A stretch of 57,882 nucleotides of DNA from Bacillales bacterium (lineage in GTDB: Bacteria > Bacillota_I > Bacilli_A > RF39 > UBA660). Positions 12,269 through 43,690 of the stretch are shown piece by piece. The notes beneath the pieces are model-generated. The model was not told the origin of the DNA. It ran no database searches and saw only the letters and a list, made by a program, of their open reading frames with translations. Both the position numbers and the translations under genes were made by a program. Location: positions 1 to 57,882 of the forward strand of contig JAEEYW010000001.1 in assembly GCA_016288305.1 (NCBI GenBank). Direction: 5' to 3'. Every line of letters starts with the position of its first letter. The stretch's first letter is position 1.

Positions 12269-13066
12269 CTAATTTACAACAACTTTTCTATGCTTTATAA
12301 CAATATTACCAGAAGCATCTTCGGCTGTATATTCAACTGAATGTGTTCCTTTAACAGCTGGGAAAGTCTTTTTATATGTAATTGTAGGAGCTACACCACT
12401 ATTATCTGTTGCTGTAACACCAGTTAAATAATTATAAGTATTAACTTGTGATAAGGAAATAGTTAAATCAGAAAATGATAAAACAGGAGCTGTCGTATCA
12501 ACTACCACTACATTTTTAATACCTTTATTACAATAACCATTTTTAGTAGCTGTATATGTTATATAATTAGTACCTAATTGATTAGTATTAACACTTCCTG
12601 AACTTGTAACACTAACATCTGATACAGCTTTAACATCTGTATAAGTTGTCTTTATTTCAACAAAAACAACATCATCAAAAGTTAATTTAGGTATTTGACT
12701 ATAATCACCTGTACAACTACCAGTGCTGTCAATTTCATAACTTAAAACACCATCTGTACTTTTTACTTTCAATACTATATCATTAGCTAAATTAACTTTC
12801 GTATTAGGATTTTTAATATCACTGTCTACTAAGCCTTCATTTTTCAATTGTGACAAAGTGATATGATATTCCATACCTTCTAAAGGATTATGTGAAGAAG
12901 CCCACAAAGATAAAGAATTTTTAAGCATATCATTTTGTTTTAAAATAGCCTTTTCTTTAGCATTCTTTAAACTCTGTGTTATTAAAACGCCTGTAATTAA
13001 AAAAATAACTGATAGTAAAGCTATAACACCCAACAATTCAACTAAAGTATATCCCTTTTTCATCAT
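12269..13066 (-). CDS. Modular pseudopilin: prepilin-type N-terminus plus C-terminal Ig-like (DUF5011/HYR-like) module
   Basis: MMKKG|YTLVELLGVIALLSVIFLI (Gly at -1, Glu at +5, hydrophobic helix). The C-terminus TAPVLSF...VTATDNSG...GTHSVEYTAEDASGN...KVVV matches the Ig-like module repeated in the giant pilin. The GGGGTGA RBS lies inside the end of the upstream ORF. The start could be 13066 or 13063. Confidence 0.8.
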   Translation of the reverse strand: MMKKGYTLVELLGVIALLSVIFLITGVLITQSLKNAKEKAILKQNDMLKNSLSLWASSHNPLEGMEYHITLSQLKNEGLVDSDIKNPNTKVNLANDIVLKVKSTDGVLSYEIDSTGSCTGDYSQIPKLTFDDVVFVEIKTTYTDVKAVSDVSVTSSGSVNTNQLGTNYITYTATKNGYCNKGIKNVVVVDTTAPVLSFSDLTISLSQVNTYNYLTGVTATDNSGVAPTITYKKTFPAVKGTHSVEYTAEDASGNIVIKHRKVVVN

Positions 13067-13068
13067 AT

Positions 13069-13596
13069 TCACCCCATTAATACATCGCCAATAAGTTCAA
13101 TAACATTACTTATAGCATCAACAACTCGATATAATTTATCTTTTATAAAATGATTTTTAGCGTTCTTTATATTTATTCTTACTATTTTAGAATCTTTATA
13201 TTTTTTTATTTCAATTTCTGTATCATAACGTTGATATTTTTTAGTAATCAAATCACAATCTACATCACCGTAAAAATATATTTCGTTATTGCCTAAATAA
13301 ATAGAATCACTAACAAACGTATTTAGATATTTAGATATATGCTCATAATTACATAAAATATAATCTATACTTTTTTTGTTATATATTTTTTTTAATTTTT
13401 TGATTTTTATCTGTTTTAATCTTTTTCTAGGACCAGTTGCATCTATTTTAATATTCATTGAACTTAAATTGTCGCACTGAACAATTTTGCTATTCTTTTC
13501 TATTTTTAAAGCTAATTTTTCATCTATACCAATTGATAGTAAATTACCAGACATTTCACTAATAATTTCATATAAACTTTTATACATTTTCAACAC
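13069..13596 (-). CDS. Hypothetical cytoplasmic protein (175 aa)
   Basis: Intact ORF overlapping tcdA by 17 nt and ending 2-5 nt before the pilin start. No motif recognised. Confidence 0.45.
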   Translation of the reverse strand: MLKMYKSLYEIISEMSGNLLSIGIDEKLALKIEKNSKIVQCDNLSSMNIKIDATGPRKRLKQIKIKKLKKIYNKKSIDYILCNYEHISKYLNTFVSDSIYLGNNEIYFYGDVDCDLITKKYQRYDTEIEIKKYKDSKIVRINIKNAKNHFIKDKLYRVVDAISNVIELIGDVLMG

Positions 13597-15385: not shown

Positions 15386-16312
15386 ATGAAATTTATGAAA
15401 AAAATATTTAATTTATTTATTATATTTGTATTAATATTCTTTGCAATTGCCATAATTGGTAATGCTGAAAGCGTGATAAGCACTGTAAAATATTCCTTTC
15501 AAATATGGATTAATAATTTATTTCCCGCTCTATTTCCTTTTTTTATCATATCAGAATTATTAGTTAATTATGGTTTTGTCGAAATATTAAGTAACTTATT
15601 TAAACCACTATTTAATAAAATATTTAAAATTAATAGTGCCACAGCATTTATTTTTTTTATGAGTTTACTATCCGGTCTACCAAGTAATAGTAAATATGCA
15701 AGGCAATTATACTTAGAAAACAAAATCGATGAACACGAGGCATCTAAAATACTAATGTTTTCACATTTTGCTAACCCCTTATTCATTCTAGGTACGATTG
15801 GTATTACATTTTTAAATGATAAACACTTAGGTTACATAGTTATGATATCACATTATCTAGGTAACATTATCATAGGTCTAATTTTTAGAAATTTTCATAA
15901 ATCAAATGCCAATTGTAATATAGAACATATTAATCATAAACCACTAGGTTTAATTATGTCTGAAAGCATTACACACGCAATTGATACTTTGTTACTAGTA
16001 TTAGGTGTAACCACAACGTTTCTAGTCATAACAGCCATTATTTTCAACAACATTGATATGCCTATATATTTAAAAACATTTATAAGCGGTATCCTTGAGA
16101 TGACTCAAGGATTAAAATATGTTAGCGACTTAAACATTTTAAACAAATATAAAGCCGTTATAATAACGGCTATAATATCCTTTGGTGGTTTATCAGTCCA
16201 TCTACAAACTTTAAGTATTATAAGTGACACTAAAATCAAATATCTTCCTTTTTTAATATCACGTATCATACATAGCATTATTTCATCAATTATTTGTTAC
16301 ATATTAGTTTAA
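15386..16312 (+). CDS. ylbJ: Sporulation integral membrane protein YlbJ-like (nucleoside-recognition/Gate domain)
   Basis: Polytopic membrane protein of 308 aa, divergent from ylbL as in Bacillus. Family assigned by eye. Confidence 0.6.
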   Translation: MKFMKKIFNLFIIFVLIFFAIAIIGNAESVISTVKYSFQIWINNLFPALFPFFIISELLVNYGFVEILSNLFKPLFNKIFKINSATAFIFFMSLLSGLPSNSKYARQLYLENKIDEHEASKILMFSHFANPLFILGTIGITFLNDKHLGYIVMISHYLGNIIIGLIFRNFHKSNANCNIEHINHKPLGLIMSESITHAIDTLLLVLGVTTTFLVITAIIFNNIDMPIYLKTFISGILEMTQGLKYVSDLNILNKYKAVIITAIISFGGLSVHLQTLSIISDTKIKYLPFLISRIIHSIISSIICYILV

Positions 16313-16818
16313 AAAGGAAAACTAGTAAGATTAATTACCCTTGTATCAAATTGATAATATATAACAGCATCAAAATTATCTTTTTTTAATGTAGTATTAA
16401 CAATTGGTATACTAATTTTTAATATAGCATTGTTACCATATTCTCTAATACTAGATTCATATACAACATCAAAATTGACTTTCTTGAATGATGTATTTTT
16501 TGGTAAATTAGTTTTAAAGGATCCAAATGTAAGTACATTATTGTTATAATCGATTTTAAACTCATCAGATGAACTATCTGTATAATTAAACTTTAAACAA
16601 TTTGTCCCACAGTTAGATAATGAGACTATTTCTTTTTCATTTAATTGTTTGTTAATATAGTTACTTATTAATGCTTGTTTATTCATAACTTCTGTTTTAA
16701 TTGCACTATTTTGATACATTTTATTTAAATTAATAATAATTTGCGTTAAAAAGATAGCAATAATAGCAACTAATGAAAGAGATGTAATTAATTCCACTAC
16801 CGTAAAACCTTTTTTCAT
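16309..16818 (-). CDS. Short pseudopilin / minor pilin (prepilin-type N-terminus)
   Basis: MKKG|FTVVELITSLSLVAIIAIFL with Glu at +5. AGGAGG RBS. Lies 11 nt downstream of the 599-aa pilin fusion. Confidence 0.8.
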   Translation of the reverse strand: MKKGFTVVELITSLSLVAIIAIFLTQIIINLNKMYQNSAIKTEVMNKQALISNYINKQLNEKEIVSLSNCGTNCLKFNYTDSSSDEFKIDYNNNVLTFGSFKTNLPKNTSFKKVNFDVVYESSIREYGNNAILKISIPIVNTTLKKDNFDAVIYYQFDTRVINLTSFPF

Positions 16819-16829
16819 AATTTACCTCC

Positions 16830-18629
16830 TTAATTTAATCTTATTAAACGAGACCCGACGTCGACAGCACTATAACTAGATGCATAATTCAAATACCAAC
16901 ACCACAAGCCGGCAACACTGTAATTAGCCCAATAACCATCGACAAGCGCTATTCTATTTCCTGAATTTCGATAATAATAATCTGTTACAACATTTGTTCC
17001 TACTTCCGTTGGAAAAGCAAATAAAGGATTATTACTATCATATCCCAGTGTTTTAGGACTACCATCAGTTTGCGCATTTGTATATCCTAAAGCATGATAT
17101 GTTCCATCAAACTTATCTACAGCATAATCATTTTTATCCGTTGATACATATGCTATATTATCTTTAACATTAATACCATCGACAAATTGGTATATATTTC
17201 CGAATATATCTTCCATACCACGATATATCATACTATGTTTGCCATCGTTATTTAATGTTCCTGACTTCATGCCCAAACTATTTGTTTGACCTGAAGCTGT
17301 AGCTGATGAAGCTAAAACACTATTGGTTGTTATATTAACTGCTGCTCCATCAAAATACACAGCTGTTCCTGTTACGCCATTTGCGCTATAACTTTCTTTT
17401 TTCGTTATAGTTCTATTAGCTGCTATACTATTACTCCATACAGAGCCATTTCCTATATTTATCGGTTGACCTACTATAAAGCCATTGGCTGATGTCGTAT
17501 TTATTATAATTCTATTTGCACTATTTTCGGCTACTAATGCTTTACCATCACTACTCATACGATATTGTGTTATACCATTGCCTAGTTTAGATTGAGAATT
17601 ATAATCAGCATATTCTACTAAATATAACATTTGGATTAAATTATAATGATAATCCATTTGGCCAAAATCAGAACCTAGTTTATTTGATTCATTTCTAAAC
17701 CATGTTATATTTTGTTGTACTTTAGGTAAAACACCACTTTTAGAGTGTAATTTGGTATCATAACTTGATGTATACCTTCCTACAGAAAATTGTTCAGATC
17801 TTGTATATCCTTCGATTGGATATTTAGATATTGATTGATATTCATATCCATTTTCTTGCCATCTTTTATAATAGAAAGTTGGTATTCTAGTTAACACATC
17901 ACCATTACTTCCATCAAATTTGAAACTTGGATCGCCATATTCGGCCATTTGTCTACCAGTAGTTGTATCGTAATTATAACTGATAATATCACTCCATGGA
18001 TAAATGTTATCAAAATCATTTGTTACTGTACTACCATTTTTAGTAGCATTAGCTACTTTACCAACAGCATCGTCATATCTTTCCCATGCTGATGATGTTG
18101 AAGTAAGTAGTCTTCTAACTGTATATTTTTTAGGTGTAAAAGAACCTAACTTTATTGTGGCATAAGTACCATCAAATTCAGCTATTAGGCGATATTTATC
18201 ATTTTTATTACTCGAAATAGTCTTAATGTATGTACGTAAACCTTGTGATATATCATTTTTATTTTTAATTTCATTATTAAGGTCATAAGTATCTTCATGA
18301 GTTAGAATAAGTTTTTTAATACCTGTTGTTTCAAGTAAAGCGCGACAATAATGATATTCGATAAAATAATTAGAAGGACAACCTGTTATATCAATATATG
18401 ATTCATTATCCAAAGCATCAGTCATCTTATAAAAATCATCATTCATTATCATTTTTTTAACATTGTTAAGTGCATATATGTCATTAACATTGTTATAAGT
18501 AACTGATCTTTCATAACTATTATTAAGTGAAATAAATTGAAGATATATTATTAATAAAGCTGCAATAACAACAGTCGAAACAACTATTGTTTCAGCCATA
18601 ATAAACCCTTTATCCCAACTTTTTTTCAT
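16830..18629 (-). CDS. Modular pilin: prepilin-type N-terminus fused to a lectin-like module (paralogue of 42180-43619)
   Basis: MKKSWDKG|FIMAETIVVSTVVIAALLIIY (Glu at +5). From about residue 169 it aligns with the 479-aa ORF (SAWERYDDAVGKVANATK, GDVLTRIPTFYYKRW, LGMKSGTLNNDGKHSMIYRGMEDIFGNIYQFVDGIN). Confidence 0.8.
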   Translation of the reverse strand: MKKSWDKGFIMAETIVVSTVVIAALLIIYLQFISLNNSYERSVTYNNVNDIYALNNVKKMIMNDDFYKMTDALDNESYIDITGCPSNYFIEYHYCRALLETTGIKKLILTHEDTYDLNNEIKNKNDISQGLRTYIKTISSNKNDKYRLIAEFDGTYATIKLGSFTPKKYTVRRLLTSTSSAWERYDDAVGKVANATKNGSTVTNDFDNIYPWSDIISYNYDTTTGRQMAEYGDPSFKFDGSNGDVLTRIPTFYYKRWQENGYEYQSISKYPIEGYTRSEQFSVGRYTSSYDTKLHSKSGVLPKVQQNITWFRNESNKLGSDFGQMDYHYNLIQMLYLVEYADYNSQSKLGNGITQYRMSSDGKALVAENSANRIIINTTSANGFIVGQPINIGNGSVWSNSIAANRTITKKESYSANGVTGTAVYFDGAAVNITTNSVLASSATASGQTNSLGMKSGTLNNDGKHSMIYRGMEDIFGNIYQFVDGINVKDNIAYVSTDKNDYAVDKFDGTYHALGYTNAQTDGSPKTLGYDSNNPLFAFPTEVGTNVVTDYYYRNSGNRIALVDGYWANYSVAGLWCWYLNYASSYSAVDVGSRLIRLN

Positions 18630-18725: not shown

Positions 18726-20210
18726 ATGATTAGACAATTTGATTTCGAGAAAGTGCCTGTAGTAGAAGTAGTAAATGAAATACTAGTTGATGCAGCTAAA
18801 CGAGGAGCATCTGATATACATTTCGATCCTCTAAGCGATCATATGAAGATAAGAATACGTATTGATGGTTTACTTCAAGATTATTCTGAAGTACCTAATT
18901 CTATAAAGAAAAACTTAATTACACGTATTAAAATCATTTCTAGTATGAACATTACTGAATCAAGATTACCTCAAGATGGCGCTATTAAAACTAGATTACA
19001 AGACATTAACTTGGATTTGCGTGTTTCATGTATTCCAACTAATAATGGCGAAAAAATAGTTATCCGTATTCTTGACTACTCTATGAGTTTAGCTGGTATT
19101 GAAAATTTGGGATTCAGTGAGGAAAACTACCATAAAGTATTAAAAATGATAGAAAAACCAAACGGTATTATATTAGTAACCGGTGCTACAGGTTCCGGTA
19201 AATCAACAACGGTATATTCTATTTTACAACGTTTAAATACTGAACAAGCTAATGTTGTTACAGTTGAGGATCCAGTCGAAATGAGTATTGAAGGAATTAA
19301 CCAAATTCAAACAAATAGTGAAATTGGCTTAACATTCTCCTCTGCTCTACGCTCTATCTTACGTCAAGACCCTAACATCATAATGGTCGGAGAAATTCGT
19401 GATACTGAAACAGCTAAAATAGCCGTTAGAGCTTCAATTACTGGACACTTAGTATTATCTACTATCCATACAAATAACTCATTAAACACTATTGAACGTT
19501 TACTTGATATGGATGTTGAAAGATATTTACTTGCTTCTGCTTTAGAAGGAATTATTTCACAAGTTTTAGCTCGTAAATTATGTCCACATTGTAGAAAATT
19601 AAGAAAAACTAATCAATATGAAAAAGATTTATTTAAAAAAGTTTTAGATAAAGATGTTGATGAAATATATACTACTGAGGGATGCGAACATTGTGGTAAT
19701 GGATACTCTGGACGTATTGCTATCCATGAAGTATTGTTATTCAACCAAGATATTAGAGATGCTATTTCAGCAGGTGTTAGAAAAGATGAATTAAGAACAT
19801 TAGTATATCAATCTGGAGCTAAAACAATGCTTCAAGATGGTTTGGAAAAAGTATTATCAGGTCTTACTACTTTCGAAGAAATTATTAAGTTAATTGAACT
19901 TGAAGGAGATAATAAAGATTCTGGAGGTTTACAACTTGCTTTAAATGATGTTCAAATAGTAAAAAAATCTGAAGAAAATAATGAAGAATTAAATACCACT
20001 GTAGAAAAAAACAGTGAAGAATTAAATAATCCAGTTGAAGAAAATGGCGAAGAATTAAATACAGTTGAAGAAAATACAGAAACAAATGATACAACTGATG
20101 AAACATTTACAAATCCATTTGCTGATGAAGTAAGTAATGAGTTCAATAACCCATTTGCAACATCAACAGAAAGCTATACTAATAGTGAAGATTTATTTAA
20201 TAATTTTTAA
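18726..20210 (+). CDS. Type IV pilus / competence pseudopilus assembly ATPase (GspE/PilB/ComGA family) with acidic C-terminal extension
   Basis: Walker A GATGSGKST, Asp box VTVEDPVE, Walker B IIMVGEIRD, His box TGHLVLSTIHTN, tetracysteine CPHC...CEHC. It has no long N1 domain. About 100 extra acidic residues follow the core. Confidence 0.9.
   Translation: MIRQFDFEKVPVVEVVNEILVDAAKRGASDIHFDPLSDHMKIRIRIDGLLQDYSEVPNSIKKNLITRIKIISSMNITESRLPQDGAIKTRLQDINLDLRVSCIPTNNGEKIVIRILDYSMSLAGIENLGFSEENYHKVLKMIEKPNGIILVTGATGSGKSTTVYSILQRLNTEQANVVTVEDPVEMSIEGINQIQTNSEIGLTFSSALRSILRQDPNIIMVGEIRDTETAKIAVRASITGHLVLSTIHTNNSLNTIERLLDMDVERYLLASALEGIISQVLARKLCPHCRKLRKTNQYEKDLFKKVLDKDVDEIYTTEGCEHCGNGYSGRIAIHEVLLFNQDIRDAISAGVRKDELRTLVYQSGAKTMLQDGLEKVLSGLTTFEEIIKLIELEGDNKDSGGLQLALNDVQIVKKSEENNEELNTTVEKNSEELNNPVEENGEELNTVEENTETNDTTDETFTNPFADEVSNEFNNPFATSTESYTNSEDLFNNF
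19983..20081 (+). repeat. Three imperfect 33-nt tandem repeats inside the ATPase tail
   Basis: GAAGAATTAAATA recurs at 19983, 20016 and 20049, encoding EELNTTVEKNS / EELNNPVEENG / EELNTVEENTE. Confidence 0.8.
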
Positions 20211-35175: not shown

Positions 35176-38100
35176 TTATGAAGCTGGAATATAACATCTT
35201 CTCTCGCCATTTACAGAATACTCTGAACCTTGTGCACAGGCTTTAATTGTTGGAACATAACATCTATATGAACCATTTGTATAATACGTTGAACCTTGTG
35301 AACATGACAAGTATTCATCAGTAGTCCAACCAGTGCACTCATAAGTCGTACAACTTATTAGCCATTCTGTCTGTTGTTTACCGGTATTAGCGCATGTACG
35401 ACCACATTCAACACCAGTATCACTACCAGGACAAACGTCTGAATATGCTCTACACTTGTCATCTATGCATGTAGAGTGCGTTGACCAACCACATGTACAC
35501 TGTGTATATTCATAACTTCCTGTTTGTCGCACAGAGGTACAATAAGTATCACCATATCTTGTATAAGCTTCACCAACATCACATATATACCCATATGATG
35601 AATTGTTTACGAAACTACCTGTTGAACATGTTGTAGTCGGCGTTGGCGCACCAATATCACATATATATCCTAATGATGAATTATACGTTAATGTTCCTGT
35701 TGTACATTTAAATGAAATGGTTGCTGCTTTATAACATCTCATGCCTGAATCATAACCAGAATAATAACTCCATCCCGATGGACACGAATACCTAGTTACA
35801 TATTCACCATTTTCAGAACAGCTTGTAGTCCAACTATATTCGTCACAAGTTCGATAATACCTAACATAACTTGTTGTATTGTAACAAGATGTCGTACTCC
35901 ACCTACAACCTCTTGAATTGTTATATGGAATACTTTCTGAGTCACAGCATTCATAAGTGCCGTCCCAATCCCATTCTCTAGATGAAACCGGATTGTTAGC
36001 TACGCATATATATCCTGTTGAGGTTTCTGTTAAAGTTCCTTCTGAACATGTAACACTTGCTCTCCATATTGCATATAGTTTAGTATTACTAGAAAAACTA
36101 TATGATGTACCAGGATTATGGGTTACTGCACTTGTGCTAGTACCATAGCCCATGAAGATATAACTTCCTTTTGTAAAATTAGTAACTCTTGGTGCTACTG
36201 AACAGCTTGTATCAGTATTATACATATTACATGTACTTGGCTCCATTGTTCCACTACCACCATTAGCGTCATAACTTACTGTTATTGTCTTATATGTTAT
36301 AGGGTACCATGTTATATTATTTGTATTTGCAGATATCATCAAACTTTTTGTTGATGTGTTATAAGCGGTATTATTACTTGTGTCATTAGCACTTACATTA
36401 TACCCTACAACAGTATAACCATCTCTTGTAATCGTAGGCGCTATTAAAGAACAATTCGTACTTTGAGCATGACCATTATATGATGCTACTATAGTACATG
36501 TTTGATCTTCTGCTGTAGATAACGTTGCACCATTAGCATTAAATTTAGCAGTATATGTTATAGAATCTTTTTTAGTTATCGCATAGTATGTCGCACTGTC
36601 ACTTACACTCTTCTCTGTATTTGCACTCCAACTACTTGTTGTTCCATTTTGTGAAGTATTAAATCCTACTACCGTTGGTGTATTACTTGATGCTGTGATT
36701 GTTGGTGATGTAATTGAACAACTTGTTGCTTCATTCCACATATCACATGACAATGTAATAGCTGTTGTTGAGGCAGAGCCGATACTAGTAGCTCCATTTG
36801 GATCAAATGTTATTGTTACTGTTTTTTTCCATATTGCATATAATGTTATGTTGCTATTTGCTGTATACGAAGCACCACTAGCATATGCTACAGTCGTTGT
36901 GTTTCTAGTTGTACCCCATCCTACAAATGTATAACCTGTTCTTGTTGGTATAGTTGAGGTTATATTAGTACTTAAATCTTGTTGTTTTGTAGTACTTGCT
37001 ATACTTCCTGTTCCACCATTTACATCATAACTAATTGTATAGCTATTTACTGCTATTGCAGTACTTGTTGCCGCATTACCAGCTCCTGTTGTTACTGTTA
37101 CTTTATATGTTCCTGCTTCTGCTGTTGTATAACTAATACCTGTTGCTCCTGTTATTGGTGTTGTTCCATTATACCATTGATAGCTATACCCTGATATCGT
37201 TGTTGATGGTGTTACTGTGGCTGTAAAGACATTCTTGTTACTTGATACAGTCTTAGCTACGCTTACTGTTGGTACAGTTTTATCTACCTTGATTGTATAT
37301 GTTCTTGTACTACTATTTCCAGCTTTATCTGTTGTTGTGACAGTGACATTAGTTCCAGAAGTATTACTTGTGATTGATGTAGCACTTATAGTTGTTGAAC
37401 CATGGCCTGATAATGTATCTGTTCCATTTACAGCTGCTAACGTTACATTAGATTTATACCAACTATTTGTTCCTAATGTACCTGTTATTGTTGCTGTACC
37501 TGCTGTTGGAGCAGTCTTATCTAGTTTATATGCATCACTACATATTACTTCACTTGTTTGATTATAATTATCAGTTGCCTGTACACAGATTCTATTATTA
37601 CTACTTTCTGTACTTATTAAACGTGTTGCCGTAGTATTTGTTACAACAGAACCATTTGTTGGATTACATGTATCTGTTGTGGCTGTACATACTTTGAATT
37701 CTTTTATACCATGTCCTGACTGGTCATATACCTCAATGTCAACAACAAAATCATTTCTTGCCCAGCCATTACTATTTATAGCATTTTCATAACCATAATG
37801 TAACTTAAATGTAACGATTGGCGCGCCGGATGATACTGTTACTTTTCTTGTAACTGTTTTAACGTTACCAGCATTATCTTTTGCTGTATATACAACATTA
37901 GTTACACCAGTCTTTGATGTATCTACTGTCTCTGGTGAATGCGTACATGTATCTACTCCACTTGTTGCATCACTACATGTTACACCTGCATCTAGGTTAA
38001 CTGTAGCTCCTACATTCACATTTATATCGGCTATACCATTAATTTCTGGTTTTGTTTTATCAATCTTAAGTGTAGAACTACATATTTTATCACTTACGTT

Positions 38101-41100
38101 ACCAACGTTATCGTATACGATGGTGCATACTTGTGTTGAAGCAACATCTGTTATAGTTATTGCAGTTGATGCAGTTTCTAATGTCGTAGGTGTACAGCCT
38201 GTTCCTTGACACCATTTGTATTCTTTAACGCCTGAGCCAACATCTGATGGTGTCATAGTAACTGCAACATCACTTGTATACCATCCATTACTTCCTGTAG
38301 TACCATCAATATTGAATGACATAGTAGGTTTTATTGCATCTCTCGTAATAGCATACCATGTTTTACCTGTATTACTTGATGATAATGTTATTGTTTTATT
38401 TGTTGCATTGTATGCACTATTTGAAGATGTACTTGCTGAATTTGTATCAAATCCTATAATTGTATAACCACTTCTTGTAATTGTTGGAGCTGTAATGACA
38501 CATGTTGTTGCTTGCGCTTCTCCATTATACGTAGCTACAATTGTACAACTTTGATCACTTGTTGATGATAATGTTGCTCCATTGGCATTAAATTTAGCTA
38601 TATATGTCAACGCACTTTTTGTTGTGATTGCATAATATGCTACATTTCCACTTATACTCTTAGCTGTATTATGATTCCATGATGATGTTGTTGCAGTAGC
38701 TGATGTTCCATATCCAACTACCGTTGGTGTATTACTTGGTGCTATGATTGTTGGTGATGTAATTGAGCAACTTGTTGCTTGCGCTGTTCCATTATATGAC
38801 TCAGCTATTGTACAACTTTGTGTAATACTTGCTTCTGTTGATGCACTTCCACCATTAGGTGTTTGACTTGCTGCACCATTCTTATAGAATGTTACAGTAT
38901 ATGTCACAGCACCTTTTTTAGTTGTTGCATCATATTCGCCATTATCGCTTACTTGTAATTCTGTTTCTGGCGTCCAAGTTTGGGGACCTGACCCTGATTT
39001 TTTAGTCCATCCAACTACGGTTGGTGTATTACTTGAAGCAGTAATCTTAGGTGATGTAATCTTACAATTTGTCGTTGCATTCCACATTTCACATGATAGT
39101 GAAATTGGTATTGTTGAAGAAGAACCGATACTAGATGCACCATTTGGATTAAATGTTATTGTTACTGTCTTCTTCCATATTGCATATAGTGTTGTTCCAC
39201 TATTAGCTGTATATGAAGCACCACTTGCATATGATACTGTTGTTGTTGTAGCACTAGTACCCCATCCCATAAATGTATATCCTGTTCTTGTTGGTACTGC
39301 TGTTGTTATATTAGTACTTAAATCTTGGATTTTTGTAGTTGTTCCTACTGTTCCAGATCCACCATTTACATTATATTCTATTGCGTAACTTCCTATTGTT
39401 ATCGCATTACTTGTTACTGATAGACCTGCTTGCGTTGATACTACTAATTTATATGTTCCTGCTTGTGTTGTCGCATAATTACTACTTGTTGCTCCTGATA
39501 TTTCTATATTATTTCTATACCATTGGTACTTATATCCTGATACAGTTGTTACAGGAGTTACTGTTGATGTTAATACATTTTGATTATTTGATACACTCTT
39601 TGCTATTGTTGCTGATGGTGCGTTTTTGTCTACGCCAATTGTATATAATCTTGTTGCCACATTTCCTGCATTATCTGTCGTTGTTACAGTAACGACCGTA
39701 CCTGATGTATTGTTTGTTATACTTGATGGGCTTACAGTTGTTGAAGCATGTCCTGATAAGCTATCAGATCCATTTATTGCATTTATTGTTACGTTAGAAG
39801 TATACCAATCATTTGTACCGCTAGTACCGGTAAACGTTGCTGTACCTGCTGTTGGGGCTGTCTTATCCAGTTTATATGCATCACTACATATAATAGGACT
39901 TGTCTGATTATAATTATCAGTTGCCTGTACACAAATTCTATTATTTCCGCTTTCTGTGCTTATTAAACGTGTTGTGGTAGTACTTGTCACAATAGAACCG
40001 TTTGTTGGATTACATGTATCTGTTGTCGCTGTACATACTTTGAATTCTTTTATACCATGTCCTGAATTATCTGTTACATTTATTGTTACATAGAAATCAT
40101 TTCTAGCCCATCCATTACTATTTATTGCCCCGGCTGCTGCTGTATAACTTACTGATGGTGCATCTGTTTCTATCGTCACTTTTCTTGTAACTGTTTTAAC
40201 GTTACCAGCATTATCTGTCGCTGTATATACAATATCATGCACTCCTGCTTTTGATGTATCAACTGTTTTAGGATTATAATCTAATTCATATATACCACTA
40301 AGTCCATCTTGAGCAGATGCTTCTAAATTAACTGTGCCATTTTTAGCCACAACTAAATCTCCTATACCTGTAATGATAGGTTTAACTGTATCTACTTTAA
40401 TTGTGCTACTACATAGCTTTTCACTATTATTTCCTGCTTTATCATATGCTACAGAACATACTTGTGTTCCTAAACCATCTGTAATAGAGACTGTCTTTTT
40501 GCCTGTCTCTTTATTTGTAGGATCGCAATTATATCCCGTGCACCATAGATAATAATCTACTCCTGACTCTAAATCAGTAGTTTCAATTTCGACATATACG
40601 TTACTTGTATACCAATTATTATTTCCTTTTGTTCCTGTAATATTATAATTCAAATTTGGTTGTGTTTTATCTACTTTAATTGTATATTCTCTTGTTGATG
40701 TGTTTCCAGCTTTATCTGTTGATGTTACTGTTACTGTAGTACCATTAGTATTATTCGTAATAGAAGCTGTATCAACTATTGTTGTGCTATGTCCTGATAA
40801 AGCATCTGATCCATTGATAGTAGCTATATTGACATTCGATAAATACCAATCACCTATGCCTTTTGTGCCAGTTATTCTGATTGTACCTGCTGTTGGAGCA
40901 GTTTTATCTAATTTATATGCATCACTACATATTACTTCACTTTTTTGCCCATAATTATCTTCTGCTTGGACACAAACTCTATTGTTATTACTTTCTGTAC
41001 TTATTAAACGTGTTGCCGTAGTATTTGTTATTACTGATCCATTTGTTGGATTACATGTATCAGTTGTTGCTGTACACAATCTAAATTCTTTAATACCATG

Positions 41101-42105
41101 TCCTGAATTATCTTTGACATTGACATTTACATAAAAGTTTTCATTAGCCCAACCATTACTATTGATTATGTTATCTGCTATAACAAAATTAACTGTTGGA
41201 GCTTCAGCTGAAACATTAACTTTTCTAGTCAAACTCTTAGTATTTCCAGCTTTATCTACAGCTGTATAAGTAACTGTATGAACACCTGCTTTAGATGTAT
41301 CAATACTTGTTGGTGTATGTGTGAAAGAAGATATTCCACTCGTAACATCTTGAGCACTAGCATTTAGATTTACGCTTCCACCTTTATTTACAACAATATC
41401 ACCAATTCCTGTAATTTCTGGTTTTACAGTATCTATCTTGATTGTATCTGTACATATTTTATTACTATTGTTAACAGCCATATCATATGCTATAACACAT
41501 ACTTGTGTTCCTACATTATCTGTAAGTGATATTGTCTTGTTTCCTGTTTCTCTATTAACCGGTTCACAATCCATACCCGTACACCATGTATAAAAATTTA
41601 ACCCCGATTCATTATCAACTACACTTATTTCAACATATGCAGATGTGGTATACCAATTATTGTTACCTAAAACACCTGTTACATTATAAGTTACAATAGG
41701 AGCATTATTATCAACACCTAAATAACCTAATGTGCAGTCATCTGTTTTTTCTAGATCACCATAAAAATTTTTAACATAGCATGAACCATCTAATCTAATA
41801 GATAATGCTGTTAAACCTTTACTATTTGCATATAATTCACCATCAGCTTGAGGTTTATTATCAATACTAACATTGTCATAAATGTTATTTAATTGTTTAA
41901 CATCCTCTTTTTTATATGGATCAATCATACTTTCAGCATAATAATTTTCTGCTGCCCTTATCAAATTAGTAGCCGTCAGCATATTAGCCCTATCTCTTAA
42001 TGTTGCAATAACATTAATAGTTATAGGTGTAGCTATTAAAGCCACTACTGCTAGTATAATAACTACTGTTATTAATTCAATTAATGTAAGTCCCTTTTTT
42101 TTCAT
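35176..42105 (-). CDS. Giant modular type IV pilin-like surface protein (prepilin-type N-terminus plus about 2,150-aa adhesin-like passenger)
   Basis: The probable start is the ATG at 42105 (GGTGA RBS; the track ORF extends to 42141). MKKKG|LTLIELITVVIILAVVALIATPI has Glu at +5. A small pilin head is closed by a Cys pair. Then come three supermodules of about 350 aa of beta-sandwich/Ig-like domains (NNWYTSNVYVEI..D.ESG, DUF5011/HYR-like GIGD..V..G..VNL.A.AQD..SGI....VDTSKAGVH.V.YTA.D.AGN), Listeria-Bacteroides (Flg_new-like) repeats (Y.I.Y.VNGG.G...PTRTGYTF.GWGT...LYAIWKK) and a 28-Cys tail. There is no LPXTG motif and no C-terminal TM segment. Confidence 0.85.
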   Translation of the reverse strand: MKKKGLTLIELITVVIILAVVALIATPITINVIATLRDRANMLTATNLIRAAENYYAESMIDPYKKEDVKQLNNIYDNVSIDNKPQADGELYANSKGLTALSIRLDGSCYVKNFYGDLEKTDDCTLGYLGVDNNAPIVTYNVTGVLGNNNWYTTSAYVEISVVDNESGLNFYTWCTGMDCEPVNRETGNKTISLTDNVGTQVCVIAYDMAVNNSNKICTDTIKIDTVKPEITGIGDIVVNKGGSVNLNASAQDVTSGISSFTHTPTSIDTSKAGVHTVTYTAVDKAGNTKSLTRKVNVSAEAPTVNFVIADNIINSNGWANENFYVNVNVKDNSGHGIKEFRLCTATTDTCNPTNGSVITNTTATRLISTESNNNRVCVQAEDNYGQKSEVICSDAYKLDKTAPTAGTIRITGTKGIGDWYLSNVNIATINGSDALSGHSTTIVDTASITNNTNGTTVTVTSTDKAGNTSTREYTIKVDKTQPNLNYNITGTKGNNNWYTSNVYVEIETTDLESGVDYYLWCTGYNCDPTNKETGKKTVSITDGLGTQVCSVAYDKAGNNSEKLCSSTIKVDTVKPIITGIGDLVVAKNGTVNLEASAQDGLSGIYELDYNPKTVDTSKAGVHDIVYTATDNAGNVKTVTRKVTIETDAPSVSYTAAAGAINSNGWARNDFYVTINVTDNSGHGIKEFKVCTATTDTCNPTNGSIVTSTTTTRLISTESGNNRICVQATDNYNQTSPIICSDAYKLDKTAPTAGTATFTGTSGTNDWYTSNVTINAINGSDSLSGHASTTVSPSSITNNTSGTVVTVTTTDNAGNVATRLYTIGVDKNAPSATIAKSVSNNQNVLTSTVTPVTTVSGYKYQWYRNNIEISGATSSNYATTQAGTYKLVVSTQAGLSVTSNAITIGSYAIEYNVNGGSGTVGTTTKIQDLSTNITTAVPTRTGYTFMGWGTSATTTTVSYASGASYTANSGTTLYAIWKKTVTITFNPNGASSIGSSSTIPISLSCEMWNATTNCKITSPKITASSNTPTVVGWTKKSGSGPQTWTPETELQVSDNGEYDATTKKGAVTYTVTFYKNGAASQTPNGGSASTEASITQSCTIAESYNGTAQATSCSITSPTIIAPSNTPTVVGYGTSATATTSSWNHNTAKSISGNVAYYAITTKSALTYIAKFNANGATLSSTSDQSCTIVATYNGEAQATTCVITAPTITRSGYTIIGFDTNSASTSSNSAYNATNKTITLSSSNTGKTWYAITRDAIKPTMSFNIDGTTGSNGWYTSDVAVTMTPSDVGSGVKEYKWCQGTGCTPTTLETASTAITITDVASTQVCTIVYDNVGNVSDKICSSTLKIDKTKPEINGIADINVNVGATVNLDAGVTCSDATSGVDTCTHSPETVDTSKTGVTNVVYTAKDNAGNVKTVTRKVTVSSGAPIVTFKLHYGYENAINSNGWARNDFVVDIEVYDQSGHGIKEFKVCTATTDTCNPTNGSVVTNTTATRLISTESSNNRICVQATDNYNQTSEVICSDAYKLDKTAPTAGTATITGTLGTNSWYKSNVTLAAVNGTDTLSGHGSTTISATSITSNTSGTNVTVTTTDKAGNSSTRTYTIKVDKTVPTVSVAKTVSSNKNVFTATVTPSTTISGYSYQWYNGTTPITGATGISYTTAEAGTYKVTVTTGAGNAATSTAIAVNSYTISYDVNGGTGSIASTTKQQDLSTNITSTIPTRTGYTFVGWGTTRNTTTVAYASGASYTANSNITLYAIWKKTVTITFDPNGATSIGSASTTAITLSCDMWNEATSCSITSPTITASSNTPTVVGFNTSQNGTTSSWSANTEKSVSDSATYYAITKKDSITYTAKFNANGATLSTAEDQTCTIVASYNGHAQSTNCSLIAPTITRDGYTVVGYNVSANDTSNNTAYNTSTKSLMISANTNNITWYPITYKTITVSYDANGGSGTMEPSTCNMYNTDTSCSVAPRVTNFTKGSYIFMGYGTSTSAVTHNPGTSYSFSSNTKLYAIWRASVTCSEGTLTETSTGYICVANNPVSSREWDWDGTYECCDSESIPYNNSRGCRWSTTSCYNTTSYVRYYRTCDEYSWTTSCSENGEYVTRYSCPSGWSYYSGYDSGMRCYKAATISFKCTTGTLTYNSSLGYICDIGAPTPTTTCSTGSFVNNSSYGYICDVGEAYTRYGDTYCTSVRQTGSYEYTQCTCGWSTHSTCIDDKCRAYSDVCPGSDTGVECGRTCANTGKQQTEWLISCTTYECTGWTTDEYLSCSQGSTYYTNGSYRCYVPTIKACAQGSEYSVNGERRCYIPAS
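36060..37269 (-). repeat. Intragenic block B3 (Ig-like SGYSYQWY domain, Flg_new and Cys-pair modules)
   Basis: Collinear with B2 (for example 36945-37045 against 39290-39390). Confidence 0.75.
37270..38335 (-). repeat. Intragenic supermodule repeat A3
   Basis: Runs from AIKPTMSFNIDG to KVDKTVP. Its landmark lies about 2,345 nt from the A2 copy. Confidence 0.8.
38336..39615 (-). repeat. Intragenic block B2 (Ig-like SGYKYQWY domain, Flg_new repeat, three Cys-pair Flg_new-like modules)
   Basis: Collinear with B3. Together A2+B2 and A3+B3 form a tandem duplication of about 2.35 kb. Confidence 0.75.
39616..40656 (-). repeat. Intragenic supermodule repeat A2
   Basis: Runs from NLNYNITG to GVDKNAP. 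Its KLDKTAPTAGT landmark lies about 1,045 nt from the A1 copy. Confidence 0.8.
40657..41715 (-). repeat. Intragenic supermodule repeat A1 (about 1.05 kb)
   Basis: Runs from VDNNAPIVTYNVTG to KVDKTQP. Shares long stretches of roughly 85-90 percent nucleotide identity (by eye) with A2 and A3, for example around 40940-41120. Confidence 0.8.
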
Positions 42106-42131
42106 ATTATCACCGTACCCTATATAATAGT

Positions 42132-42160
42132 AGTATACCATTTTTTTTAATTAATTTCAA
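42132..42160 (-). promoter_or_regulatory. Strong sigma-A-type promoter of the giant pilin gene
   Basis: Minus strand: TTGAAA (42160-42155), a 17-nt spacer, then TATACT (42137-42132) preceded by TGG (extended -10-like). GGTGATAATATG follows. Confidence 0.6.
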
Positions 42161-42182
42161 TAAAAAAGGGATGTACTCCCTA
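42161..42182 (-). terminator. Short terminator hairpin after the 479-aa pilin gene
   Basis: Minus strand AGGGA-GTACA-TCCCT followed by TTTTTT. The stem is only 5 bp and overlaps the stop codon. Confidence 0.45.
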
Positions 42183-43619
42183 TTTTGTTCTAAGTATACG
42201 TGATCCTATAGAATTAAGTCCAACTGAACCAGTGTCCAAAGCATAATAGTATAGACCATTAGAATTACCATAATCCCATCTACCACCAACTAGAGTAATA
42301 TAACTTCCACCTGCTTGACGATAGCCATCATTAATAACACTACCAGTTTCGGTTGGAAAACTAAATAATGGATATCTATCATCGTAACCTAATGTCTTGA
42401 TAGTTCCATTTGCTTTAGCGTTAATATAACTTAACATCTTGTAACATCCAGTGTATGTATCAACGTTGTATTCCTCTGGTTCAGTACATACATAAGCCAC
42501 ATTATTTTTAAGATTAATACCATCAATAAATTGCCATATATTTCCAAAAATATCTTCCATACCTCTATATATCATACTATGTTTTCCATCATTATTTAAT
42601 GTTCCTGATTTCATTCCTAAACTATCACATCCGCCAGATGGAAGAATAGTTGAAGATGAAGAAACACCTAAACCTAATTTGGCCTGTGAATTATAATCAG
42701 CATATTCAACTAAATATAATATTTGAATTAAGAAATAATGATAATCTAATTGACCAAAACCTTTATCAATAGCTTCTGACTTAGTTCTAAACCATGTCAT
42801 CGTTTGATTAGCCGCTGGCGCAACACCACTCATTGAACGAATTTTATTATCTGCATAGCTTGATGTATATCTTCCTACGGAAAAAGCGTCTGATTTAGTA
42901 TATCCACTAATTGGAAACTCAGATATAGATATATATTCGTAACCATTAGATTGCCATCTTTTATAATAGAATATTGGTATACGCGTTAAAACATCACCTG
43001 TACTACCATCAGCATGATATTTAGCTTCAGAAATATCCGCTACATCTTGATTTAAATCTCTATCATATACATAACTTTTAATAGCACTCCATGGATAAAT
43101 ATTATCAAAATCATTTACAACACTACTTCCATCTTTAGTAGCATTAGCTACTTTACCTACGGCATTGTCATATCTTTCCCAAGCAGAAGAAGTAGAAGTT
43201 AAACTACGTCTAATAGTATATTTAACATTGATATCTGCAGAACTTTTAATACTATAATCAGTGCCATCATAATATACTAAACGATCGTTATTTTTAATAA
43301 GTAAACGCACTACTTTATTACTTTTATAATCAACATCTAATACTTCAGTATTACCTAAATGTACCATTGAAGCAACATTATCTTTAGTCATATTTTCGCA
43401 ATCAATAGTCGTATCAGAATTCATTTTATCTTTCATATTAAAATTTAATAATTTACAATAGTCATCAATATCCCTAACTAAATTTTTAGCTTCATCTAAA
43501 GCTACTGAATCCTTTGAATCATCTATAATATCAATAACTATTGGTGTAGCTACTAAAGCTATAACACCAAGTATAACAATAACAGCTAATAATTCTACTA
43601 AAGTAAACGCCCTTTTCAT
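42180..43619 (-). CDS. Modular pilin: prepilin-type N-terminus fused to a lectin-like module (paralogue of 16830-18629)
   Basis: MKRA|FTLVELLAVIVILGVIALVATPI (Ala at -1, Glu at +5). C55/C74 pair in the head. C-terminal module with YRGMEDIFGNIWQFIDGIN and GGRW...GL...IGSRIL motifs. Confidence 0.8.
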   Translation of the reverse strand: MKRAFTLVELLAVIVILGVIALVATPIVIDIIDDSKDSVALDEAKNLVRDIDDYCKLLNFNMKDKMNSDTTIDCENMTKDNVASMVHLGNTEVLDVDYKSNKVVRLLIKNNDRLVYYDGTDYSIKSSADINVKYTIRRSLTSTSSAWERYDNAVGKVANATKDGSSVVNDFDNIYPWSAIKSYVYDRDLNQDVADISEAKYHADGSTGDVLTRIPIFYYKRWQSNGYEYISISEFPISGYTKSDAFSVGRYTSSYADNKIRSMSGVAPAANQTMTWFRTKSEAIDKGFGQLDYHYFLIQILYLVEYADYNSQAKLGLGVSSSSTILPSGGCDSLGMKSGTLNNDGKHSMIYRGMEDIFGNIWQFIDGINLKNNVAYVCTEPEEYNVDTYTGCYKMLSYINAKANGTIKTLGYDDRYPLFSFPTETGSVINDGYRQAGGSYITLVGGRWDYGNSNGLYYYALDTGSVGLNSIGSRILRTK

Positions 43620-43634
43620 ATTATCACCATATTA

Positions 43635-43664
43635 AGTATACATTTTTTTAACATATTTTGTCAA
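43635..43664 (-). promoter_or_regulatory. Sigma-A-type promoter of the 479-aa pilin gene
   Basis: Minus strand: TTGACA (43664-43659), an 18-nt spacer, then TATACT (43640-43635). GGTGATAATATG follows. Confidence 0.55.
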
Positions 43665-43690
43665 CAAAAAAACCTGTTATATACAGGTTT
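43665..43690 (-). terminator. Rho-independent terminator of rpsP-khpA
   Basis: AAACCTGT/ACAGGTTT stem followed by TTTTTTT on the minus strand. Confidence 0.65.

Follow-up and report, generated by a model that had tools for sequence, protein, structure and literature searches.

Type IV pilins with lectin or von Willebrand factor A (vWA) modules belong to an established class of modular pilins, for which 264 architectures have been drawn from InterPro (PMC8179133), and in Streptococcus sanguinis the modular minor pilins PilB (vWA) and PilC (concanavalin-A-like lectin) mediate adhesion (PMC8179133, PMC9934059). The type V pili of Bacteroides have tip pilins with C-type-lectin (CLec) heads that are diversified by diversity-generating retroelements (DGRs) (bioRxiv 10.1101/2024.11.15.621889), and a survey of DGR targets records a GspG-type pilin domain among the rare target domains (PMC11661182); no paper joining a type IV pilin with DGRs was found in the literature searched. 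Here we describe a gene of a Bacillales bacterium (assembly GCA_016288305.1, contig JAEEYW010000001.1) whose 479-aa product appears to join a type IV pilin to a CLec module otherwise found mainly in phage proteins. The gene and a paralogue encoding 599 aa lie in a stretch of 57,882 nucleotides (57.9 kb; positions 1 to 57,882 of the contig), which we call the window. With a probability of roughly 0.6, we read the 479-aa protein as a type IV pilin built from two modules, carrying a phage-derived or phage-exchanged CLec module, displayed on a filament and fixed in two copies.

A typical class III leader is short and basic, with Gly (rarely Ala or Ser) at position -1, a hydrophobic residue at +1, Glu at +5 and about 20 hydrophobic residues. 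The product of open reading frame (ORF) 42180-43619(-), which starts with MKRAFTLVELLAVIVILGVIALVATP, has all of these features: its class III signal peptide reads MKRA/FTLVE (the slash marks the cleavage site), MKRA being followed by FTLVELLAVIVILGVIALVATP. The protein scored 23.4 bits against Pfam N_methyl (PF07963; cut-off 21.2) and 26.1 bits against TIGR02532 (cut-off 16.3). Ala at -1, the less common variant that the initial annotation had read from the sequence, is real; nearly all homologues have Gly there. When the sequences in the Protein Data Bank (PDB) were searched with phmmer, the matches were pilin N-termini only (S. sanguinis PilE1, geopilin and MshA). An AlphaFold2 model computed from a 52-sequence alignment (mean predicted local distance difference test score (pLDDT) 89.5, predicted template-modelling score (pTM) 0.85) places a predicted pilin head at residues ~5-125 (pLDDT 53-90). 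In this head, a 55-residue alpha1 helix (7-61) packs on four strands (91-99, 102-110, 113-117 and 122-125), so that the predicted fold is that of a pilin, a long alpha1 on an antiparallel sheet. A large mixed domain begins at residue ~133, in agreement with the earlier division of the protein into a head of about 130 aa and a module of about 345 aa.

For this C-terminal module, sequence searches were uninformative in the protein domain databases. No Pfam or NCBIfam model covers residues ~130-479 (Pfam at E<=1), and profile searches of PDB sequences (phmmer and hmmsearch) returned pilin N-termini and did not find the formylglycine-generating enzyme (FGE)-sulfatase fold. These searches gave the pilin N-terminus only; the fold is visible only through structure prediction. 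A phage protein family, PHROG 5302 ("tail protein"), did match the 479-aa protein at E 4e-47 (both paralogues at about 1e-47). The best Foldseek match of the model in the PDB was TaqVP, a DGR variable protein of Thermus aquaticus (5vf4; E 7.7e-9, probability 1.0, TMt 0.47-0.49), followed at greater distance by PvdO, which has an FGE-like fold (E 6e-4), and by Mtd of Bordetella phage BPP-1 (E 0.017), with TvpA and EgtB also within the top 10. Among the predicted viral structures of BFVD, tail collar fiber proteins and crAss-like phage tail proteins matched with E down to 2e-29 and TMq of 0.6-0.69, these scores being normalised to a query of which the module makes up 72%. At the level of the predicted structure, membership of the module in the C-type-lectin/FGE-like superfamily is confirmed. 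The initial annotation had proposed this fold from sequence motifs, and the Foldseek matches agree with it.

The module is widespread. A word-indexed search gave at least 1441 homologues. With the module alone as query, an exhaustive HMMER search gave 3385 representative clusters at E<=1e-3, of which 224 reached E<=1e-30. In nearly all matches listed it stands at the C-terminus, behind N-termini that differ. Most homologues have phage-type N-termini (Mtd_N, Phage_tail_fib or collagen-like); pilin fusions of 480-570 aa account for about 50 of the best 120 database matches, and the remaining homologues have signal peptides or transmembrane (TM) anchors. Relatives in species-representative genomes come mostly from metagenome-assembled genomes (MAGs) of uncultured gut 'Bacilli', 'Tenericutes' and 'Mycoplasma' with 25-34% GC, one of which, Lapin-014__bin1, has 14 pilin-fused copies.

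Paralogues aside, the nearest relatives of the module are prophage tail fibres whose genes adjoin a reverse transcriptase gene. Identity of the module of the 479-aa protein to P0006-P0008 and P0014, phage proteins of 606-611 aa, is 59-60%, on a par with the 61% measured against the in-genome paralogue. P0006 is flanked by tail genes on one side and by an RVT_1 reverse transcriptase (RT), Phage_tail_APC and an endolysin on the other, and the homologues of loci L058 and L081 stand between baseplate or tail genes and lysis genes; the phage-type relatives occur in prophages, one of the two settings that the earlier proposal had asked about. Among named phages, LoVEphage, crAss-like phages and Yersinia phage fEV-1 have distant copies of the module, 23-32% identical, in proteins annotated as tail fibres. 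The window module is homologous to the distal domain of tail fibre tips.

Several of these phage relatives are linked to a retroelement. An RT gene lies directly downstream of the homologue at 11 phage-type loci; at L078, the twelfth, the match to an RT (tblastn) is weaker and fragmentary. Where template repeat (TR) and variable repeat (VR) were compared, 12 of 12 mismatches in L040 and eight of 10 in L058 fell at TR adenines. On the strength of the downstream RT and these adenine-specific differences, the sequences mark the phage members of the family as real DGR targets, which together with PHROG 5302 and the BFVD matches bears out the earlier remark that the fold serves phage receptor-binding proteins and DGR targets. 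The VRs of L058 and L040 align with the last ~40 residues of the window proteins over the scaffold LVGG.W....GLW.W....SS....G.R.L. When the 14 pilin-fused paralogues of a single MAG were compared, conservation averaged 0.90-0.95 in alpha1 and 0.70-0.91 in the module scaffold, as against 0.53-0.56 in the VR-equivalent segment. This variability is the pattern expected of a putative ligand-binding patch.

The prophage DGRs of the family have an organisation of their own. Between target gene and RT they hold two to eight tandem TR-like cassettes of ~155 nt (counted as IMH-like motifs, where IMH is the initiation of mutagenic homing site, with the VR excluded), as at L058:11209-12272 and also in L018, L021, L027, L030, L032, L040, L042, L052, L060 and L074. 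The cassettes all terminate in GGNGCNCGAC. A VR-like peptide, LVGG.W....GLW.W....SS....GAR, can be read in frame from nearly all of them, while two, from L018 and L042, have decayed or are not in frame. At each locus the VR corresponds to a single cassette, and the position of the matching cassette varies between loci. L052 and L058, whose RTs are 98% identical, share the same cassette array, yet the VR of each derives from a different cassette. This difference suggests a choice between alternative templates. The cassettes closest to the target gene tend to be A-poor (0.11-0.17) and the farther TR-like ones A-rich (0.20-0.24), with L030 and L040 as exceptions. No description of such TR-cassette arrays was found in the literature searched.

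The paralogue, 23.5 kb from the 479-aa gene, carries the same module. BLASTP aligned the two proteins in two blocks, with 132 of 204 residues identical in the first (65%, E 7e-88) and 85 of 158 in the second (54%, E 9e-49); the three peptide stretches quoted earlier as common to both ORFs are all present in this alignment. At the nucleotide level, blastn aligned 42488-42625 with 17144-17281 (138 nt) at 87% identity and a stretch of 560 nt at 74%, in agreement, apart from an offset of ~4 nt, with the high identity seen by eye between 42555-42625 and 17215-17285. Each part of the similarity first noticed in the sequence is thus borne out and lies far beyond chance. The two BLASTP blocks are separated by an insertion in the paralogue (Table 1), whose equivalent site in the 479-aa protein is near residue 321-328. 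Many family members carry insertions at the same site (two-stretch matches, split at query residues ~192/199), and 17295-17567(-) and residue ~321-328 can be regarded as an insertion hot-spot of the module. Foldseek matched the paralogue model to TaqVP at E 2e-7. This model is confident only at residues ~165-599, and its first ~160 residues have pLDDT below 50. The N-terminus, MKKSWDKG/FIMAETIVV, is prepilin-like by motif scan and received no support from the hidden Markov models (HMMs) of Pfam and NCBIfam; the pilin nature of this N-terminus, suggested by the motif, is unconfirmed.

Like S. sanguinis PilB and PilC, the 479-aa protein comes from a monoderm and combines a class III signal peptide with a small pilin module and, C-terminal to it, a bulky module, which is ligand-binding there and putatively so here. 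Its size is similar to that of PilB (predicted 50.5 kDa), and both are proposed tip-exposed adhesins. Unlike in PilB and PilC, the module is CLec/FGE-like, of apparent phage tail-fibre origin and without a Pfam or InterPro signature, for which reason the InterPro census of 264 architectures was blind to it. The genes also differ in being scattered singletons outside a pil operon, up to 14 per genome in relatives. A further likeness is to CofB and TcpB of the type IVb pili of enterotoxigenic Escherichia coli and Vibrio cholerae, large minor pilins with extra C-terminal beta-rich domains binding at the tip (PMC8179133); the folds of those domains (beta-repeat and beta-sandwich) are unrelated, however, their hosts are diderms and their genes lie inside the pilus operon.

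The best structural matches, the DGR variable proteins TaqVP (5VF4), Mtd (1YU0-1YU4) and TvpA (2Y3C), likewise have the variable segment at the extreme C-terminus and a conserved scaffold (..GG.W....GLW.W....SS....G.R.L), and the phage members of the module family have TR, VR and RT with adenine-specific changes as such proteins do. In contrast, sequence identity to them is only 11-16%, the window genes have no TR, RT, IMH or hairpin, and the module is joined at its N-terminal side to a type IV pilin, where those proteins have a phage fibre shaft or a lipoprotein signal. The tail-collar and tail fibres (PHROG 5302; LoVEphage, a Bacteroides phage whose module protein is annotated as tail collar fiber; crAss-like phages; Yersinia phage fEV-1 g27) share the C-terminal module, but have Mtd_N, Phage_tail_fib or collagen-like N-termini and stand in tail modules, whereas the window protein begins with a pilin and its gene lies among housekeeping genes. 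With the Bacteroides type V tips the window protein has in common a CLec head related to phage receptor-binding proteins on a pilus tip (inferred here), a gut host, many pilin copies per genome, and prophage and cellular copies in one family. The type V system differs in using lipoprotein precursors and strand exchange in diderms, in its carrier domain and in its CLec subfamily; diversification has been demonstrated there, whereas here it is suggested for two homologues and not for the window genes.

Taken as a pilin, the precursor would be cleaved by prepilin peptidase after Ala-1 and the processed protein anchored in the membrane by its alpha1 helix. By analogy with S. sanguinis PilB and PilC, PilB-type machinery would then add it to a type IV filament in low abundance, most likely at the tip. 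The VR-equivalent face (residues ~441-476) would bind a surface ligand, probably a glycan or some other structure on the surface of bacteria or the host gut. The module would have been captured from, or exchanged with, phages of low-GC gut bacteria, and would give two fixed specificities (the 479-aa and the 599-aa protein) without active diversification. In favour of this reading are the housekeeping neighbours, the PilB/GspE-type ATPase beside the paralogue and the presence of five ORFs of prepilin type in the window.

The main rival to this filament model, unlikely in our judgement, is that the protein is displayed on the surface with no pilus involved. Its class III signal peptide would act only as an export signal and membrane anchor, as in the sugar-binding proteins of the archaeal 'bindosome', or the protein would belong to a short pseudopilus, and in either case it would be one of a repertoire of cell-surface binding proteins. 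Sister genomes carry the same module in many copies behind TM anchors or plain signal peptides. In SRR15604593_bin.36 (L054-L070) at least 12 copies follow a TM helix, MRERIKRNIKFIMGVVVGICCCS..., and in SRP287540_co2_425 (L009-L038) at least nine follow the signal-peptide-like N-terminus MKRKxILVLAILLMAIGFAAVSTTLFxNG. The anchor of the module therefore appears, from these sequences, to be interchangeable across lineages, and because sister genomes use other anchors, the pilin part may be one of several interchangeable anchors and not a filament subunit. The pilin-fused homologues elsewhere, for which the earlier proposal had asked whether they sit in pilus loci, are scattered single genes away from machinery genes (one lies, for example, between hpf and secA), and no type IV ATPase was found within 10 kb of a pilin-fused homologue at any locus. 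Neither pilD (prepilin peptidase) nor pilC (platform) nor an obvious major pilin was found in the 57.9-kb window, and Ala at -1 is a sub-optimal residue for prepilin peptidase cleavage. All of these observations count against filament display. The five window ORFs of prepilin type (motif scan), which are scattered along the region and not clustered, also include a 2321-aa protein too bulky for a filament body. Against surface display, the predicted head is a complete pilin fold, more than a signal peptide would require; a PilB-type ATPase adjoins the paralogue; and the bulky modular pilins PilB, PilC and CofB do enter filaments (PMC8179133).

Quite improbable is the view that the window genes are active DGR targets, the C-terminal segment being hypermutated in trans by a retroelement elsewhere, for example in a prophage, to give a variable pilus adhesin. 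It would fit with the phage DGR targets of the family, with the IMH-like GGTGCTCGACTTCTTAAAACC retained by the pilin-fused homologues L003 and L010, the second of which has adenine-rich VR mismatches (7/11), and with the A-poor VR-equivalent of the window genes. In the 479-aa gene this segment has a GC fraction of 0.38 and an A fraction of 0.24 (0.30 and 0.35 in the rest of the gene), which is weak evidence for past adenine mutagenesis. In the window, however, blastn revealed no second copy of the 3' 200 nt besides the paralogue that could serve as TR, ORFs of at least 150 aa contained no YxDD motif, and tblastn with the family RT gave no match. Both window genes lack the two elements that come after the stop codon in DGR-linked homologues, the IMH consensus GGNGCNCGACTTCTTAAAAC and the GC hairpin. 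At the IMH site these genes read GGATCACGTATACTT and GGGTCTCGTTTAATA, as against GGNGCNCGACTTCTT in DGR-targeted homologues, and they end in GGATCACGTATACTTAGAACAAAATAG and GGGTCTCGTTTAATAAGATTAAATTAA without a GC hairpin, as against GGNGCTCGACTTCTTAAAACC in DGR-linked homologues, L003 and L010. An identical 479-aa protein, with the same cotE-rpsP-khpA upstream, is also encoded on a contig of a second assembly (L079; GCA_016295295.1, JAEEGK010054693.1, 6.9 kb), which, with contig numbers above 54,000, may be a metagenome or host-genome assembly containing this bacterium. By their sequences, the window genes look like fixed variants.

The two pilin-fused homologues with the IMH-like sequence (L010:11297-11491 and L003:3818-4012) are a case apart. 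After the stop codon both match the GC hairpin, with a perfect 8-bp stem and 5-nt loop in L010 and a mismatched stem in L003. Between the L010 VR and the TR of L040, a prophage DGR in a sister rabbit MAG, identity is 90%. Adenines make up 24% of that TR, yet seven of the 11 mismatches lie at them; a rough binomial estimate, calculated by hand, for this excess is ~0.006. No RT was found within 10 kb of either gene, and tblastn with the family RT gave no match at any pilin-fused locus. These sequence features hint that L003 and L010 are candidate type IV pilins diversified in trans, now or recently.

We consider it very improbable that the protein is an FGE-superfamily enzyme (formylglycine-generating, EgtB- or PvdO-like) exported through the pilin pathway. 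PvdO and EgtB are among the Foldseek matches and FGE-like motifs had been noted earlier, but the Pfam FGE-sulfatase model (PF03781) matched neither the 479-aa protein at E<=1 nor, up to E<=10, a single one of 52 family members, the proteins closest in structure are phage fibres and variable proteins without enzymatic function, and the conserved positions form a structural scaffold round a hypervariable patch. Hardly credible, finally, is a prophage tail-fibre remnant, that is, a phage structural gene: PHROG 5302, the BFVD tail-fibre matches and the 60% identity to phage proteins would suit it, but the neighbours of both copies are conserved housekeeping genes with no flanking phage genes, a pilin N-terminus takes the place of a tail-attachment domain, and the gene has its own promoter-like and terminator-like sites.

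The surroundings of both copies (Table 1) were annotated for nearly all window ORFs of at least 80 aa. A prophage context was rejected since the annotated ORFs are housekeeping genes, and neither copy is flanked by genes for phage structure, lysis or integration. The genes cotE, rpsP and khpA lie upstream of the 479-aa gene, and downstream of it come the giant pilin-like gene and then uppS, cdsA and rseP; smc, a thiF-like gene, uppP and queH are near the paralogue. The window has a GC content of 27% and includes the sporulation genes for CotE and SpoIIM. The one integrase-family protein in it, a 293-aa ORF at 1676-2557, may be a recombinase of Xer type; it matches Phage_integrase as well as two SAM-like N-terminal domains.

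The PilB/GspE-type ATPase is the only machinery gene seen in the window and has no pilM-O beside it. It lacks the N-terminal domains of full-length PilB or GspE, aligning from position 106 of 486 in the GspE model and 177 of 564 in the PilB model, and its C-terminus is an acidic, repetitive tail of ~100 aa. The giant pilin-like gene probably starts at the ATG at 42105, giving MKKKG/LTLIE. Repeated domains of Ig-like (PF16403), OmpL47 and Listeria-Bacteroides type occur in its product, together with a C-terminal region rich in Cys. A promoter-like site of its own lies at 42132-42160, and the gene shares the ribosome-binding context GGTGATAATATG with the 479-aa gene.

Table 1. Features of the window discussed in the text, with the evidence for each (coordinates are positions in the window)
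Feature	Coordinates	Strand	Evidence
479-aa gene, putative bimodular pilin	42180..43619	-	ORF; N_methyl and TIGR02532 above cut-offs; AlphaFold2 model (pLDDT 89.5, pTM 0.85)
Pilin part, residues 1-130	43230..43619	-	leader MKRA, predicted cleavage after Ala-1, Phe+1, Glu+5; sequence, model and phmmer
C-terminal module, residues 131-479, predicted C-type-lectin/FGE-like fold	42183..43229	-	PHROG 5302; Foldseek against PDB and BFVD; HMMER
VR-equivalent segment, residues ~441-476, ITLVGGRWDYGNSNGLYYYALDTGSVGLNSIGSRIL	42192..42299	-	alignment with L058 and L040 VRs; divergence within the family highest here
Promoter-like site TTGACA-18-TATACT, upstream of 479-aa gene	43635..43664	-	consensus scan only
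Terminator-like hairpin of khpA, before the promoter-like site of the 479-aa gene	43670-43690		sequence
Terminator-like hairpin and T-run, overlapping the stop codon of the 479-aa gene	42167..42181	-	in the position taken by IMH and GC hairpin in DGR-targeted homologues
Paralogue, 599 aa: prepilin-like N-terminus (unconfirmed) and same module	16830..18629	-	BLASTP; AlphaFold2; Foldseek
Insertion of ~85-90 aa (paralogue residues ~355-445), predicted beta-rich subdomain	17295..17567	-	BLASTP gap; model strands 358-441
GspE/PilB-type filament assembly ATPase, divergent from paralogue	18726..20210	+	Pfam T2SSE E 8e-127; TIGR02533/TIGR02538 E ~1e-145, below equivalog cut-offs
Minor-pilin-like gene, 169 aa, MKKG/FTVVE, directly downstream of paralogue	16309..16818	-	TIGR02532 18.5 bits (cut-off 16.3); weak ComGE/ComGF
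Giant pilin-like gene, 2321 aa as listed, directly downstream of 479-aa gene	35176..42141	-	Pfam/NCBIfam; motif scan
Prepilin-type ORF, 267 aa, MMKKG/YTLVE, weak Ig-like/HYR matches	12269..13072	-	between an unannotated 175-aa ORF and smc

The initial annotation had stated that such a protein would be a new kind of modular pilin, which overstates its novelty. As far as found in the literature searched, a CLec phage tail-fibre module without a database signature is new as a module of a type IV pilin, and so are a monoderm type IV pilin as its carrier, the multi-copy scattered organisation and the close phage-host relationship. The design itself is not new: grafting a binding module onto a pilin and CLec heads on type V pili are both established, and the ~50 fusions among the best 120 matches make the window protein one of many. 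These fusions bear only the database label 'prepilin-type N-terminal cleavage/methylation domain-containing protein', and a family of ~50 or more has gone unnoticed because its module has no database signature. The modularity of type IV pilins is considered to account for the many functions gained by simple filaments, and the known catalogue depends on domains with database signatures.

The family ties together monoderm type IV pili, phage receptor-binding proteins and DGR hypermutation, and the ~60% identity points to recent exchange of a head module between phage tail fibres and host surface appendages in gut Bacilli. A wider proposal, which we advance tentatively and with more doubt than belief, is that uncultured low-GC gut Bacilli carry a repertoire of phage-derived heads on type IV pilins, some of them, as the features of L010 would suggest, re-diversified in trans by resident prophage DGRs. 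Such heads, sharing ~60% identity with fibres of phages whose hosts probably belong to the same lineage, may bind that lineage's own surface receptors, and could thereby serve kin adhesion or act as a mask or decoy against phage. This use of the carrier would be the type IV counterpart of the DGR-diversified type V tips of Bacteroides. If the heads bind what the phage fibres bind, they would offer a route to the receptors of uncultured phage-host pairs, and if some of the pilin copies are DGR targets, they would be the first case of retroelement-diversified type IV pili.

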